Shown here: positions 14,480 to 49,610 of the stretch, piece after piece
How the letters are laid out: every line of letters begins with the position of its first letter
How positions within the stretch are numbered: the stretch's first letter is position 1
Assembly: GCA_036348995.1 (NCBI GenBank)
Contig: GCA_036348995.1_4855.1
Length of the DNA stretch: 49,610 bases
Reading direction: 5' to 3' (one strand)
Source of the DNA: Escherichia coli
GTDB lineage: Bacteria; Pseudomonadota; Gammaproteobacteria; Enterobacterales; Enterobacteriaceae
Notes under the pieces: generated by a model
What the model saw: the letters and a program-made list of their open reading frames with translations, nothing else
Told to the model about the DNA's origin: nothing
Databases searched by the model: none
Made by a program: the position numbers and the translations under genes

Positions 14480-16835
<2,356 letters not shown>

Positions 16836-16863
16836 TCACATTTCTGTAAGGGTCATTATATCA

Positions 16864-17376
16864 TCAAGCGCCGTGGTTCTCATGGAAGCCGAGTTTCCTT
16901 TCAGCCGATTTCCTCGCCAGTACAGCATCTTCAAATCGCGCATGTCTCCCGAGACTGTGCATCACACCATCTTTTTTTATGTATGCATACCACTTTTCTG
17001 TCAGATTGCACCACGATACACCAACAACACCTGACGTATTTCTTGATGTTTTACTCCTATTCATGGCGTTTTGCTGGCGAGACACGAGTCTTAAGTTTTC
17101 AATGTGGTTATCTGTTCTTATGTGGTTCACATGGTCAATCTCCATTCCATCTGGTATCTCACCATTGTGCATTTCCCATATAATGCTGTGAACAGATTTC
17201 ACCTCTTGATTTACTTTTACATACAAGTAGCCATTTGTCGGGGATAGTCTTCCAGCGATATCGCCTGGCTTATTGTATCTATTCCTGTTAACCTTTAACC
17301 AGAAAATTTTCCCGTCAGAGTAATGAAATATTTCATTCCAGTTCATCTCAGTCACTCCACCTTTCCAGTTTATCAA
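16864..17376 (-). CDS. HNH homing endonuclease (NUMOD4/HNH/AP2-like), start may be internal
   Basis: EIDHVNHIRTDNHIENLR; paralogous to 9707..10210. Confidence 0.8.
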   Translation of the reverse strand: MINWKGGVTEMNWNEIFHYSDGKIFWLKVNRNRYNKPGDIAGRLSPTNGYLYVKVNQEVKSVHSIIWEMHNGEIPDGMEIDHVNHIRTDNHIENLRLVSRQQNAMNRSKTSRNTSGVVGVSWCNLTEKWYAYIKKDGVMHSLGRHARFEDAVLARKSAERKLGFHENHGA

Positions 17377-17539
17377 TTACAACATCGCGACCTTTGCTTT
17401 CGTGGCCTTTCACCCTGTCGCAATTAAAAAACATATCAAATGCTCTTTCTGGGTCAGATGCAGTAGAAACAGCGCAAACCTTGGTAACAACATCGCCACC
17501 ATTAAGCACTTCAGCATGAATAAAATAAACGCTCATCAC
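17348..17539 (-). CDS. hypothetical protein
   Basis: ORF track. Confidence 0.3.
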   Translation of the reverse strand: MMSVYFIHAEVLNGGDVVTKVCAVSTASDPERAFDMFFNCDRVKGHESKGRDVVIDKLERWSD

Positions 17540-17701
17540 TCAATCTCCTCACCATTAACCCAGCGCTGCAGGACTTCGATTAGCTGCGCGGCTTGGTGCT
17601 TATCAATCTGAACCCAGTCGTCACACTGCCTTAAATTGATTACTCGCTCTGTATTTATATACAGACTGTAGCATTCATTTGTTTTTTCAATAACCATAAC
17701 A

Positions 17702-18427: not shown

Positions 18428-18458
18428 AAAAGCCCTCATTCGAGGGCTTTATTTTTAT
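18428..18458. terminator. bidirectional intrinsic terminator
   Basis: hairpin AAAGCCCTC-ATTC-GAGGGCTTT plus T-run. Confidence 0.7.
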
Positions 18459-20989
18459 CGCCTGCGCCGGATTAGCATCCCGCTACCGCGCTGAACGATA
18501 TGGTCATTGAGTGCGTAACGAACTGCATCCCAGTAGTGGTTGTATGCATCAACAATATCCGTGAGCACATTCCCTGTCAGCTTATCGACCTTGTAGCTGT
18601 ACATTGCTGCCTCATTCTGCATCTCCTTGCATCGTTCGTGAATGATGATGCTGTCGCAGCCGCGTAACCATGTTACTCCATCCTCGACACTTCCGGGCCA
18701 TTTCGTGCATGGGTGAATGTCAAGTCCTGAACGCTTGATGTGGCTGATGGTTTCTGGTCGTGCGCAGTCGGCATACCATCGCGCGCGCTTAGCCATCGGG
18801 AATGATTGCTCCATCGCAGCTGGCGTATCGGTAATTTCAAGGCCGACCTTGCCGTACTCGCGATTAATATAAATGTTGCGTCGTCCGACCGGTAATTCTT
18901 CGATATAAACCTCAACCATTGCGGTAGGGTCCGTACTGAATCCGAAGTCCATCCCGAAGTATGGTCCATGCCATTCAGGTTTGACCTCGAAGTTATCAAT
19001 GCGCCACTTGCCACCAAATACCTGCTCGTCATTCCTCTTGTTAAAGCGCCCACCCCAAACCCATTGATAGCGGTCGAAGTCTGTCTCTTTCATGCGTTGC
19101 ATTTGGCTTGGCAGTGGAGTATCCCAAAACCACGGATTATCTGAATAGTTACACTCAATAATCAGGTTTTCTTCGTCCTCGTAAATACCGCCATTGGAAC
19201 GCAGTTTACTGTAAAACGGCTCAACCCACGTCTTCCATGTAGGGTCGTGCTCCTTATTTGGGTTGAATGTCACCCATATCTCAGAGCCGTCTGCGCGAAT
19301 GGTTGGAGTGAGGATTTCCCAGCTTGTCTGGCTAACGTTTTCAGCCTCCTCAACCCAAGCAACTGTAATGCCAGCAAAACCTTTAACGGTAGTCTGGTTG
19401 CGATACAGACCTTTAAAGCGGAACTTTGCTTTCGTTACCTTGTGTGTTATTTCGTTGTTGATGACGCGAAACTCTTTTGTCTCGCCCTTCCTGTCAATCT
19501 CGTCTTTCAGCTCCTGATATGAACTATCCTCAATAGACTGCTGAATCTCACGAAAACAAGCTATCCTGTCAGGCTTAAAGCGTGCACGCTCGGTAAGTAT
19601 TGTAGTTACTGTTCTTGTTTTTCCGCTGTTATGTGTAACCGTGCCATCAGCAAGCAGGAAAAGATGATCGCCATCAAGAGTGAATCCAGCGTATTCACCA
19701 TGCCCGGCATAAGACAATGACACCTCAGTCATCTTTCCACGGGTTGACTTGGTTTTCTCTGCCATCTTCCTTTTTACTCGGCATGGGATTGTATGAAGGT
19801 CACCACTAACGAACACCTCCCACACATCCTTTTCGTATATTCTTTTCTCGCCTTTATATTCAAAGGTGACATCGGTCTTTTTAATTATGCTTGACTTGAA
19901 GCCAAGCGATCTTGCCACATCCATCAAAGAGAAGGCTATATCTTTATTTATTGATGTAAAACAATAGCTTTTCTTTTCTTTGTGGTAATGCGAATCAGTA
20001 TCCAATAGCCCAGCCAGAATCTGAAGTCTTACCTCTCTGCTGTTTTTGATATAGCAGTCAGGTATGTGTTTATTATTAATCACCCCAAGCTGCTGCATTT
20101 TAGTTAGTAACGGGTTGGTGTTTTTCCCCATACCAGCAGCTCGACCATTAGTTATCGCATAGACGGGGCATCTATCATCGTCGCGAACCTTTACCTGCAT
20201 CCCGTATTGGCTTGCCACGTTGTAAAGGTAGTCAACTATCTCTGGATCAGGTGTGCACACTTCAACACTACGAGATGAGCCATCACCTAACCATAAACCA
20301 AGAAAGTACGGGTCAACTGGAACGCTTTGCTCCTGAAAATCCCATCCTGTTCGCCAACCTTTAAAGACATGACGGAACTTTTTGGAAGTTGCGCGCGACA
20401 AATATTCTGAAACACCGATATTAAGTATTTCCGGGTCATTTGGGTAATAACGATAAATTCTTTTACCATCAGGTGTTTTCGTCTCATTACTGATGGCAGA
20501 TGGGACCTTTCGTAATGACAGTATGTGACTTGAATTGACGGTGTAGTCATCAGCATATTTTTGATGAACCGTGTACATGTCATCAAATCCACGGCAGATG
20601 CTTAAAACATTTCGTGGTTTACTGTCTGGCCCCATAACCTTATCGCCAACAACGATATCCTCTACGCGTTTTAGGCTACCATCAAACATCCTCACCATCG
20701 TGCCGATGGCTAAGCATCCGCGCCCGCCAAACACAATCTTATTTCGCTTGGGGTAAAGTAGCTTTTCCAGCTTTTCTGGTATCAGGTGGTCAACGTTAAT
20801 ATCAGAGTCGCTAACGTCATCAACTCCGCTTTGCGTCATTTTGAGTTTGCGAACAATCTTCTTATCTGTATTAACAACACCGAACACAGCAGATTCAGGC
20901 GTATCAATCACGCCATCGCCAATAATCTCTTCAAGTTTTTCAATTGCTGGTGCTGACAGTCTTTTGCGTGCCATATATAGATTCCTCAT
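18455..20989 (-). CDS. terL: terminase large subunit interrupted by an intein
   Basis: Walker A GGRG|SGKT split by a 363-aa insertion; 481-aa extein. Confidence 0.9.
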   Translation of the reverse strand: MRNLYMARKRLSAPAIEKLEEIIGDGVIDTPESAVFGVVNTDKKIVRKLKMTQSGVDDVSDSDINVDHLIPEKLEKLLYPKRNKIVFGGRGCLAIGTMVRMFDGSLKRVEDIVVGDKVMGPDSKPRNVLSICRGFDDMYTVHQKYADDYTVNSSHILSLRKVPSAISNETKTPDGKRIYRYYPNDPEILNIGVSEYLSRATSKKFRHVFKGWRTGWDFQEQSVPVDPYFLGLWLGDGSSRSVEVCTPDPEIVDYLYNVASQYGMQVKVRDDDRCPVYAITNGRAAGMGKNTNPLLTKMQQLGVINNKHIPDCYIKNSREVRLQILAGLLDTDSHYHKEKKSYCFTSINKDIAFSLMDVARSLGFKSSIIKKTDVTFEYKGEKRIYEKDVWEVFVSGDLHTIPCRVKRKMAEKTKSTRGKMTEVSLSYAGHGEYAGFTLDGDHLFLLADGTVTHNSGKTRTVTTILTERARFKPDRIACFREIQQSIEDSSYQELKDEIDRKGETKEFRVINNEITHKVTKAKFRFKGLYRNQTTVKGFAGITVAWVEEAENVSQTSWEILTPTIRADGSEIWVTFNPNKEHDPTWKTWVEPFYSKLRSNGGIYEDEENLIIECNYSDNPWFWDTPLPSQMQRMKETDFDRYQWVWGGRFNKRNDEQVFGGKWRIDNFEVKPEWHGPYFGMDFGFSTDPTAMVEVYIEELPVGRRNIYINREYGKVGLEITDTPAAMEQSFPMAKRARWYADCARPETISHIKRSGLDIHPCTKWPGSVEDGVTWLRGCDSIIIHERCKEMQNEAAMYSYKVDKLTGNVLTDIVDAYNHYWDAVRYALNDHIVQRGSGMLIRRRR
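19628..20716 (-). mobile_element. intein with LAGLIDADG homing endonuclease inside terL P-loop
   Basis: starts Cys (CLAIG), ends HN followed by Ser; LGLWLGDGS and LAGLLDTDS motifs. Confidence 0.85.
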
Positions 20990-21073
20990 CAGGGCATCAT
21001 TGAAGTGAATACGGCAGGCGGTGATGAGTCGCTTTTCGGGTGCCCCCTAGCCGCATTAATTATTATAAATCAG

Positions 21074-21517
21074 TTACTGTTGTTGCTCCAGTAACTTCTC
21101 CAGTCGCTCAAGGCGCGCAGCTAGTTCGGTTAATTCTTTCACGTCAAGCCCAACCTTAATCATAGACACAACCTGAGACGCAACATCAATTGGAAGCTCG
21201 CCACTGGAGACAGATTGAATGACATCCTCTATCTGCTCAACTGGCGTGGCGTCTTTGCGGTATTTAAAATTAACCGGAGGTGCCATGCTTTTTTGCACGG
21301 GGCTGATGCGCAGGAATATCTCCTTCAGCATTTGCACACCCTGAGTCGGGTTTTCCTCAGTCATTCTGATTGACGTCCTGATGAATGCGTCAAGGAATTC
21401 CTCCTCGCCAAGCCCGCATCGCTTTAATGCCTCAATAAGCCTGTTTCTGTAGCTTAATCCTCTGCCAGCAGGCTGGTATTCAGAGGAAAATTTCATGACA
21501 GGGTTTGGATTAGCCAT
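21074..21517 (-). CDS. terminase small subunit (putative)
   Basis: 147 aa immediately upstream of terL, coiled-coil C-terminus. Confidence 0.5.
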   Translation of the reverse strand: MANPNPVMKFSSEYQPAGRGLSYRNRLIEALKRCGLGEEEFLDAFIRTSIRMTEENPTQGVQMLKEIFLRISPVQKSMAPPVNFKYRKDATPVEQIEDVIQSVSSGELPIDVASQVVSMIKVGLDVKELTELAARLERLEKLLEQQQ

Positions 21518-23287: not shown

Positions 23288-23911
23288 TCACCCTATTTCA
23301 CATATCATATAAACTTTCCTCATTAGGCCGTCAAACAGCATTGGGTGTATAGAATCACATAACCCCTTCATTTGCTTTGCTTGCTTTATCTTTTCATTCT
23401 TCCATGCCTGATGCGCTTCAATCACCGAACTGAAATAGCCTAAAAATACTGTACGACCATTACCATCACCTATGTGCGCCTGATAAGCGCCAGAACACTT
23501 ATTAAATGACACACCTATAGGCAAGTCACCTCTCGAGGCATTCCTTGCTGTCACGAAGTTGTTTAGGTGTGGAGGAACGTAAACACATGCTTCAGGTGAG
23601 TAAGTCAAATTACCCGGAATCAATATATCCTTATCAAGGTGCCACCCTTCGACGTAATGGTTCTTCCACCACAAATTAAAGTTTGAAAACAGCAGCCACT
23701 CATTACAACAAGTAACATGCTCATAGGTTTTGTGTTGTTTTTTGTATTCATCATCAAAACACCTCCTGAGCATTTGATACCATTGGCTATATCCATAATG
23801 CTGCACCTTTTTACCATCAACTTTCATCGCCACACCGAAGCCACAATCATTAACTCCAACACCAAATATTGGCTTTCTTTTCCCTTTCTTTATATCTCTG
23901 TTAAGCTCCAT
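23288..23911 (-). CDS. divergent HNH/AP2-like endonuclease candidate
   Basis: C-terminal AP2-like GVSFNKCSGAYQAHIGDGNGRTVFLGYF; WHLDKD...SPEACVYV core. Confidence 0.4.
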   Translation of the reverse strand: MELNRDIKKGKRKPIFGVGVNDCGFGVAMKVDGKKVQHYGYSQWYQMLRRCFDDEYKKQHKTYEHVTCCNEWLLFSNFNLWWKNHYVEGWHLDKDILIPGNLTYSPEACVYVPPHLNNFVTARNASRGDLPIGVSFNKCSGAYQAHIGDGNGRTVFLGYFSSVIEAHQAWKNEKIKQAKQMKGLCDSIHPMLFDGLMRKVYMICEIG

Positions 23912-24038
23912 TTTTATGGAGAGATTTTTCTTTTGCATTTCTTTTCCTCATGGCCTTTAGTCTGCAATATGGACAGCAGTACTTCTTGTCACTTCTGCAT
24001 CCTGGCAACAGTTCTTTCCCGCACATCAAGCACTTCAT
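23901..24038 (-). CDS. zinc-ribbon microprotein (about 45 aa)
   Basis: MKCLMCGKELLPGCRSDKKYCCPYCRLKAM from hand translation. Confidence 0.3.
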   Translation of the reverse strand: MKCLMCGKELLPGCRSDKKYCCPYCRLKAMRKRNAKEKSLHKNGA

Positions 24039-47287: not shown

Positions 47288-47364
47288 GGACGCGTAGCTT
47301 AATTGGTTAAAGCAACCGAATCATAATCGGATGATTGAAGGTTCAAATCCGTCCGTGTCCACCA
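47288..47364 (+). tRNA. tRNA with anticodon CAU (Met or Ile2-type), CCA encoded
   Basis: hand-folded cloverleaf: 7-bp acceptor stem, D-arm GCTT/AAGC, anticodon loop ATCATAA, T-loop TTCAAAT. Confidence 0.75.
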
Positions 47365-49192: not shown

Positions 49193-49609
49193 TTATAGAT
49201 TTGAATCAGCGAAAAAACAATGGCGACCACGCCAAGAATAATGTCCAATTTCGCCGCCCCATTTAAAAGTGATGGAAAGGATGAACAGATGGATGCCGAT
49301 AATAATAAATGCGTACTGCGCATGAAGCGGCGTTTCTACAGGCGTGATAAATTCCCATACGAATGACTCTATCGCAACCAGCCATTCGTAAAGGCTCATT
49401 GTCAGCACGCAGAGCGCCATCTTTGTACTTTTGCGCAGTGCAATAGCCGGGAACAACCAGACCATAGACTGCGCAAGGTAATACAAATATTCGGCGGGAA
49501 ATGAATCAGCAAGCACCCATCCAAGATACACAGACATCGCCATTACCGGAATGAACACCAGAAACGCGACCATGCCAGTGCAAGCGAAACCCAGCACATA
49601 CATGATCAT
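49193..49609 (-). CDS. multi-pass membrane protein, 5-prime end runs off the window into the terminal repeat
   Basis: 3-4 hydrophobic segments; in copy 1 an upstream in-frame ATG lies at 148-150. Confidence 0.4.
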   Translation of the reverse strand: MIMYVLGFACTGMVAFLVFIPVMAMSVYLGWVLADSFPAEYLYYLAQSMVWLFPAIALRKSTKMALCVLTMSLYEWLVAIESFVWEFITPVETPLHAQYAFIIIGIHLFILSITFKWGGEIGHYSWRGRHCFFADSNL

Positions 49610-49610
49610 G
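49484..49610. repeat. terminal direct repeat, copy 2 (identical to 1..127)
   Basis: exact 127-nt match to window start. Confidence 0.95.

Follow-up and report, generated by a model that had tools for sequence, protein, structure and literature searches.

How can a phage package its DNA with a large terminase subunit whose ATP-binding loop is split in two, and what is the segment that splits it? The question is raised by the terL gene in a 49,610-nucleotide stretch of DNA deposited under Escherichia coli (GenBank assembly GCA_036348995.1, contig GCA_036348995.1_4855.1; this whole stretch is referred to here as the window), in which the Walker A motif of the encoded terminase is interrupted by 363 residues. 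An initial annotation, made from the sequence alone, proposed that the insert is an intein with a LAGLIDADG homing endonuclease. On the basis of its in-frame insertion, its Hint plus LAGLIDADG architecture and its mapped catalytic residues, we identify the insert as a class-1, PI-SceI-type bifunctional intein. We consider it to be splicing-competent with a probability of about 0.9, and its endonuclease is likely to be active at present.

An interrupted Walker A motif

The insert comprises residues 92-454 of the longest open reading frame (ORF) at the locus (18455..20989, minus strand, 844 codons), running from CLAIGT to TVTHN. Its flanks read KIVFGGRG/C...HN/SGKTRTV (slashes mark junctions), such that the Walker A loop is divided as GGRG/SGKT; on the plus strand the same segment contains stops throughout, which places the feature on the minus strand. 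The initial description of an insertion of this length, beginning with Cys, ending with His-Asn and followed by Ser, holds to the base. When the intein is removed from the window phage's own terL, the joined site reads GGCGGGCGCGGA/AGCGGAAAAACA, and the GGRGSGKT loop of the spliced protein is identical to that of intein-free orthologues. Alignment to such orthologues, which had been suggested as a check, gives a single gap of exactly 363 columns with the 474-residue TerL proteins of Escherichia phage swi2 and Salmonella phage STGO-35-1, both of which are 82-83% identical and have an uninterrupted GGRGSGKT. In a megablast search against phage genomes, 11 records span the whole gene and about 45, swi2 and STGO-35-1 among them, match query positions 1-1170 only, i.e. 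the match stops at the C-terminal intein junction. When IMG/VR was searched with the spliced TerL, 13 loci proved to be intein-bearing, with the tblastn alignment interrupted exactly at residue 87 in all 13 contigs, and ~24 close TerL relatives are intein-free, being contiguous over residues 1-476.

These results effectively refute the idea of a non-splicing accessory domain within terL, or of an artefact of assembly or annotation. That idea can draw on the GenBank records of the carrier phages, which label the gene merely 'terminase large subunit' and leave the intein unmentioned. Against it, the insert splits GGRG/SGKT where orthologues have an intact loop, a Hint fold is present, and the same insert occurs in at least seven named phage isolates as well as in the 13 metagenomic contigs. 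The initial annotation had named two findings that would tell against an intein, i.e. a conserved non-splicing domain in homologous terminases and missing splice-junction residues; the segment is present at 13 loci and absent from ~24, and all of the splice-junction residues, Cys1, Asn61/His64, His362-Asn363 and Ser+1, are in place.

Profile searches bear out the assignment of the host gene as a large terminase. The NCBIfam profile TIGR01547 (PBSX-family large terminase) scores 135 bits on the unspliced precursor, versus a cutoff of 105, and PF04466 (Terminase_3; cutoff 23.2) scores 111 bits before, and 128 bits after, removal of the 363 residues; PF17288 (Terminase_3C) scores 47 bits on the spliced sequence (cutoff 26.7). 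The spliced TerL covers the Terminase_3 profile from position 3 through the intact GGRGSGKT loop, and the C-extein beyond SGKT contains the remainder of the ATPase followed by an RNase H-like nuclease domain. As the profiles of the ATPase domain and of the nuclease domain each score above the curated cutoff, the extein is assigned by its sequence to the Terminase_3/PBSX family of large terminases.

The 844 residues initially given for terL are correct for the longest ORF, but probably not for the gene product. The annotated orthologues all start MARKRL, corresponding to the ATG at 20974, five codons downstream of the start of the longest ORF; a GAGGA lies 8 nucleotides upstream of this ATG, and the earlier ATG overlaps that ribosome-binding site (window 20974-20989). 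The true start is probably the ATG at 20974, giving a product of 839 residues, in which case 844 residues is five too long. The computed masses are 96.4 kDa for the 839-residue precursor, 41.1 kDa for the intein and 55.3 kDa for the 476-residue spliced TerL, the last of these agreeing with the value of ~55 kDa predicted at the outset. The mature motor protein would thus have 476 residues, as opposed to the 839 annotated, and the intein needs to be removed before the protein is expressed, modelled or used in TerL phylogeny. The guanine-plus-cytosine fractions of the intein, N-extein and C-extein are 0.431, 0.442 and 0.488, respectively; as the contrast with the exteins is only mild, foreign composition was not used as evidence.

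Hint and endonuclease domains

The intein profile searches proposed with the initial annotation gave matches above cutoff to three Pfam families, Hom_end_hint (E 1.7e-21), Hom_end (E 3e-10) and LAGLIDADG_3 (E 2e-7), with Hom_end_hint covering intein residues 1-87; matches of this strength go far beyond what chance would give. The NCBIfam profile TIGR01443 (intein_Cterm) scores 16.1 bits in the whole protein (cutoff 15.6) and falls below its cutoff for the insert alone; being marginal, the NCBIfam intein matches add little beyond those to Pfam and the PDB. A phmmer search of PDB sequences matched yeast PI-SceI (E 1.3e-20), in an alignment extending from Cys1 to the terminal His-Asn. This alignment pairs intein residues 1-55 and resumes at residue 134, opposite PI-SceI residue 207; what corresponds to the DNA-recognition region of PI-SceI is reduced in the intein and lies in the N-terminal part of its Hint domain, and DGDHLFLLADGTVTHN (blocks F and G) is paired with DSDHQFLLANQVVVHN of PI-SceI. 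Both of the LAGLIDADG-type motifs quoted initially were located (Table 1), each with an acidic residue aligned to PI-SceI. These residues, Asp145 and Asp241, together with Lys216, lie opposite PI-SceI positions 218, 326 and 301, which we take to be its active-site residues.

A 60-sequence family alignment underlies both the structural model and the conservation counts. The AlphaFold2 model has a mean predicted local distance difference test (pLDDT) score of 93.6 and a predicted template modelling (pTM) score of 0.90. In a Foldseek search of the PDB with this model, ten PI-SceI chains come first (E 1.6e-28 to 2.4e-24, TMq 0.71-0.77), followed by archaeal VMA inteins, PI-PfuI and Prp8 mini-inteins; for the endonuclease part of the model, I-DmoI is also a match (E ~1e-5). 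Cys1, His64, Asp145, Asp239 and Asn363 are invariant in the 60 relatives, and Asn61, Lys216, Asp241 and His362 are at least 90% conserved, with every one of these residues being retained in the window copy. Sequence and model together identify a two-motif monomeric LAGLIDADG endonuclease, with a predicted pseudo-dimeric α-β-β-α-β-β-α fold.

Established intein chemistry suggests how the split terminase would become active. The 96-kDa precursor would be unable to bind ATP until the intein excises itself, a process likely beginning with an N-S acyl shift at Cys1 and proceeding via trans-esterification, in which Ser+1 would attack the resulting thioester, and cyclisation of Asn363, with help from His362 and from His64 of block B. 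A final O-N shift would restore the peptide bond, leaving the 41-kDa intein free and the GGRGSGKT loop of the 55.3-kDa TerL intact. From the comparative evidence, the freed intein is predicted to be a LAGLIDADG endonuclease in which Asp145 and Asp241 bind metal. In a mixed infection it may then cleave the P-loop-coding site of a terL allele that lacks the intein, and repair from the intein-bearing genome would copy the intein along with several hundred bases of flanking sequence.

The distribution of the intein in isolated phages is informative with respect to splicing. The same intein (94-98% identical) is present in the terL genes of isolates Segz_1, ST44, ST46, ST65, KpV2811, pIS4-A and pYD38-A; the carrier phages are plaque-forming, belong to several genera and have recorded isolation on Salmonella, Klebsiella, Aeromonas and Vibrio. 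Since isolated phages must, we infer, package their DNA, and a split P-loop would not allow packaging, their existence supports splicing. The ratio of nonsynonymous to synonymous substitution rates (dN/dS) for the intein is 0.05-0.16 overall, indicative of purifying selection, and an intact reading frame of full length is retained in all 18 of the intein copies analysed.

The identity island and mobility

Around terL the window, together with Segz_1 and ST46, is 45-75% identical to the group comprising KpV2811 and pIS4-A, but an island of high identity, centred on the intein, is shared by the two lineages (Table 1). Synonymous divergence (dS) between them is 0.05-0.11 in the N-extein and 0.13-0.19 in the intein, whereas it is 1.4-1.9 in the C-extein. 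Vertical descent predicts equal dS, and the contrast therefore argues that the common ancestor of the intein and its near flanks is far more recent than that of the rest of the gene. Within the C-extein identity falls gradually, from 0.88-0.97 in the first 300 nucleotides to ~0.84 and then ~0.73. The pattern recurs in all 13 intein-bearing IMG/VR contigs, with the outer boundaries of the island varying by genome. Identity in the ORF upstream of terL is 90% to KpV2811 and 92-95% to ST46, but only 55-65% to pIS4-A and Segz_1; by this comparison, such switches (~55% versus ~93%) mark variable recombination breakpoints beside the island. The island points to a co-conversion tract left by recent homing, i.e. 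by break-initiated gene conversion, and its position, centred on the intein, supports the initial description of the element as a selfish mobile insertion.

The terL gene of the window appears to have a wider history of exchange. Genome-wide, the window is ~90% identical to the intein-free phages LPSTLL, swi2, Sf11, C1 and INT55, yet the terL C-exteins of these phages are only 80-83% identical to its own, and its terL is 95-96% identical to those of ST46, ST65 and Segz_1. It seems from these values that the whole terL gene, beyond the intein alone, has been exchanged in a mosaic genome.

Several points weigh against recent homing by an active endonuclease. Splicing and DNA cleavage are both deduced from sequence, and ordinary mosaic recombination of the terL 5' module, without an endonuclease, could also give rise to an identity island. 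A closely matching empty target site was sought among the intein-free IMG/VR alleles and was not found; of the 60 nucleotides around the site, 20-29 are different in these alleles from those of the intein-bearing flanks, and the Ser+1 codon is TCA in the closest of them versus AGC in the intein-bearing flanks (10 of the 24 intein-free loci, lacking a match to the simple pattern GGRGSGK[ST], were left out of this comparison). In the endonuclease itself, Ser242 replaces the final residue of LAGLIDADG motif 2, which is Gly in at least 90% of relatives; the substitution is common to all five orthologous copies compared and could weaken the enzyme. By part, and on small counts, the endonuclease domain has a somewhat higher dN/dS (0.15-0.36) than the N-terminal (0.05-0.11) and C-terminal (0.06-0.17) parts of the Hint domain.

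The replacement of the near-invariant motif 2 Gly and the dN/dS value of up to 0.36, reached in one pair, favour a splicing-competent intein with a dead or dying endonuclease, inherited vertically and moved only by ordinary mosaic recombination, as does the fact that the window is mosaic in any case, with a backbone like that of intein-free phages and a terL like those of ST46 and Segz_1. We regard such loss of endonuclease function as unlikely, in that Asp145, Asp241 and Lys216, the counterparts of the presumed PI-SceI active-site residues, are intact, dN/dS is well below 1 and the 18 copies have neither frameshifts nor deletions. In addition, an island centred on the intein, with gradual decay of the flanks and genome-specific breakpoints, is what is expected of repeated break-initiated conversion.

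Homing by an active endonuclease is the reading we prefer, and the locus provides a clean comparative signature of recent spread between phage genera. It is also supported by the sporadic distribution of the intein, both alleles being found in one metagenome, and by precedent, in that mycobacteriophage TerL inteins at P-loop sites splice and cleave intein-less alleles (PMC5050341). The closely related phages of metagenome 3300045988, with 11 intein-bearing and at least 12 intein-free contigs, are a natural population for tracking homing. The cultured Salmonella and Klebsiella isolates, along with the co-occurring alleles, offer a practical system for studying homing and co-conversion in phage crosses.

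A further proposal is that the insert is a domesticated regulator, whose conditional splicing (redox- or metal-sensitive, via Cys1) times the late activation of the terminase. Its location in the catalytic P-loop, such that activity would be strictly gated by splicing, is consistent with a role of this type, and P-loop inteins have been argued to act as sensors (PMC4760082; PMC5050341, discussion). We nevertheless consider such domestication improbable; the sequence contains no sign of it, approximately two thirds of close TerL relatives manage without the intein, the full endonuclease domain is kept, and the signature of horizontal spread fits a selfish element.

With respect to the surrounding genome, the order of genes from upstream to downstream (a 147-residue ORF, terL, portal and head-morphogenesis genes) is typical of a packaging module. 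The 147-residue ORF lies directly upstream of terL, in the place expected for a small terminase subunit, and matches only a family of unknown function. Between the portal gene and terL, a 170-residue ORF matches an HNH endonuclease family; the region ~16800-17700 is without alignment to Segz_1 or ST46, and the portal-terL spacer is 1.6 kb, versus ~0.64 kb in Segz_1. This ORF looks like a free-standing homing endonuclease insertion, a second selfish element ~1 kb from terL. Another HNH family is matched by a 216-residue ORF elsewhere in the window, and with two HNH endonuclease ORFs plus the intein the genome would have at least three homing-type nucleases. There is a single tRNA gene. The first 127 bases of the window are repeated exactly as its last 127, which looks like a k=127 assembler overlap on a circular or circularly permuted genome, and a phage genome of ~49,483 bp is probably contained in the window in full.

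Table 1. Features of the terL locus, followed by other features of the window; residue numbers are those of the intein and functional assignments are predictions.
Feature	Position	Strand	Details
terL, large terminase precursor	18455..20974	-	839 residues, 96.4 kDa (probable start); Terminase_3 (E 6e-32), Terminase_3C, TIGR01547
N-extein	20717..20974	-	86 residues, ending ...KIVFGGRG; first Walker A half, GGRG at 20717-20728
Intein	19628..20716	-	363 residues, 41.1 kDa; class-1 type, PI-SceI-like, bifunctional
Hint domain, N-terminal part	20318..20716	-	residues 1-133; Cys1 at 20714-20716; NSSH (Asn61/His64) at 20525-20536
LAGLIDADG endonuclease domain	19817..20317	-	residues ~134-300; Hom_end, LAGLIDADG_3; includes Lys216
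LAGLIDADG motif 1	20276-20302	-	LGLWLGDGS, residues 139-147; Asp145
LAGLIDADG motif 2	19991-20017	-	LAGLLDTDS, residues 234-242; Asp241; Ser242 at 19991-19993
Hint domain, C-terminal part	19628..19816	-	residues 301-363; blocks F and G; His362-Asn363 at 19628-19633
C-extein	18455..19627	-	390 residues and stop; Ser+1 at 19625-19627; SGKT at 19616-19627, second Walker A half
High-identity island	~19500..21100		94-97% nucleotide identity; centred on the intein; shared with otherwise distant phages (KpV2811, pIS4-A and 11 IMG/VR contigs)
147-residue ORF	21074-21517	-	phrog_9747, E 4e-63
Portal gene	15411-16826
170-residue ORF	16864-17376	-	HNH endonuclease, phrog_99, E 1e-63
216-residue ORF	23288-23938	-	HNH endonuclease, phrog_953, E 7e-74
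tRNA-Met (CAT)	47288-47364	+
Terminal repeat	1-127 and 49484-49610		127 bases

Inteins in other P-loops and known systems

A protein search with the intein alone returned 272 proteins at E <= 1e-10; the matches listed are 33-45% identical, bar two fragments of the same allele. The host families include thymidine kinase, DnaB, SF2 helicases, PhoH, Terminase_3, AAA_24 and ABC ATPases, as well as dTMP kinase, RecA, RuvB, AAA+ and zeta toxin-like kinases. As judged by sequence comparison, more distant relatives of the window intein (35-44% identity) are found in P-loops of no fewer than twelve unrelated families of NTPases. Both intein junctions were located computationally in 106 relatives, in 82 of which the -1 residue is Lys (GxxxxGK/[ST]) and in 21 of which it is Gly (G/[ST]GK[ST], the register of the window intein); the two registers are offset from each other by three residues. 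The downstream one is used by the other inteins found in Terminase_3 proteins (P0006, P0019 and P0032, with GGRG-type loops, and P0023), so that the site of the window intein is distinct from theirs. A register shift within Terminase_3, from GGRGSGK/S to GGRG/SGKT, is possible on weak evidence; a rough neighbour-joining tree groups the window intein with three of these inteins at a bootstrap of 42/100, and we make no claim that they are sisters.

A related intein (38% identity) is present in Klebsiella phage JD001 (2393-5089), where it lies in the Walker A motif of an SF2-type helicase (ATGGGK/T). The JD001 gene is a 'putative helicase' in GenBank JX866719 and a 'terminase large subunit' in RefSeq NC_020204, and we suspect that intein-to-intein similarity caused the latter label.

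It may be that the window intein is one tip of a large PI-SceI-like class-1 clade, the endonucleases of which tolerate or target P-loop-coding DNA, with non-allelic jumps occurring from the Walker A motif of one NTPase to that of another, unrelated one, the terL copy still homing among enterobacterial siphoviruses and phages acting as vehicles; we put this wider scheme forward tentatively, at somewhat under an even chance. The occurrence of a single intein lineage in the P-loops of many unrelated ATPases bears on the concentration of inteins in P-loops, though none of our results overturns current understanding.

Terminases are common intein targets in phages, and P-loops have been described as a hotspot for inteins (PMC4760082). 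No mycobacteriophage protein hosts inteins more often than TerL, where they lie within the P-loop or beside it; five representative inteins spliced, two of which cleaved intein-less alleles, and among terminase families the inteins were found only in Terminase_1, Terminase_6 and Pham3880 (Kelley et al. 2016, PMC5050341). Homing into P-loops of proteins without homology to one another has been reported for the Anaeramoeba cluster 1 inteins, which are described as class 3 (PMC10710043). Our literature search on these phages and their intein found no paper describing it, and neither P-loops nor Terminase_3 are discussed in a 2025 preprint on actinophage inteins. Terminase P-loop inteins are well documented, and the window intein, previously unannotated, is one of a well-known kind in a well-known place.

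Of the known systems, PI-SceI (the Saccharomyces cerevisiae VMA1 intein; PDB 1VDE, 1LWS, 1LWT and 1DFA) is the best match in both sequence and structure. In both inteins a Hint domain with Cys1, a block B NxxH motif and a C-terminal His-Asn is interrupted by a two-motif LAGLIDADG endonuclease, and in both cases the catalytic region of a P-loop ATPase is interrupted. Overall identity is, however, ~23-24%, and the window intein has 363 residues versus 454 in PI-SceI, with the ~90 fewer residues being accounted for by the stretch from residue 55 to residue 134, where domain I has its DNA-recognition part. Ser serves as the +1 nucleophile in the window intein and Cys in PI-SceI, and the host is a bacteriophage terminase rather than a eukaryotic V-ATPase. 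The mycobacteriophage TerL inteins at P-loop sites, TerL1-a and TerL1-b among them, resemble the window intein in their P-loop site, sporadic distribution and signs of horizontal transfer (PMC5050341), but the likeness is by site and description only, the extein of the window being of the Terminase_3/PBSX type. The likeness to the inteins in the helicases of JD001 and Salmonella phage FSL SP-031, at DnaB site b, and in PhoH and thymidine kinase, all of which are in Walker A motifs, spans the whole intein including the endonuclease, at 35-44% identity; the host proteins differ, and most of the other NTPase inteins use the register three residues downstream. As with Anaeramoeba cluster 1, related inteins are found in the Walker A motifs of unrelated proteins, although the Anaeramoeba inteins are described as class 3 and are eukaryotic, whereas the window intein is of the class-1, PI-SceI-like type and is carried by phages.

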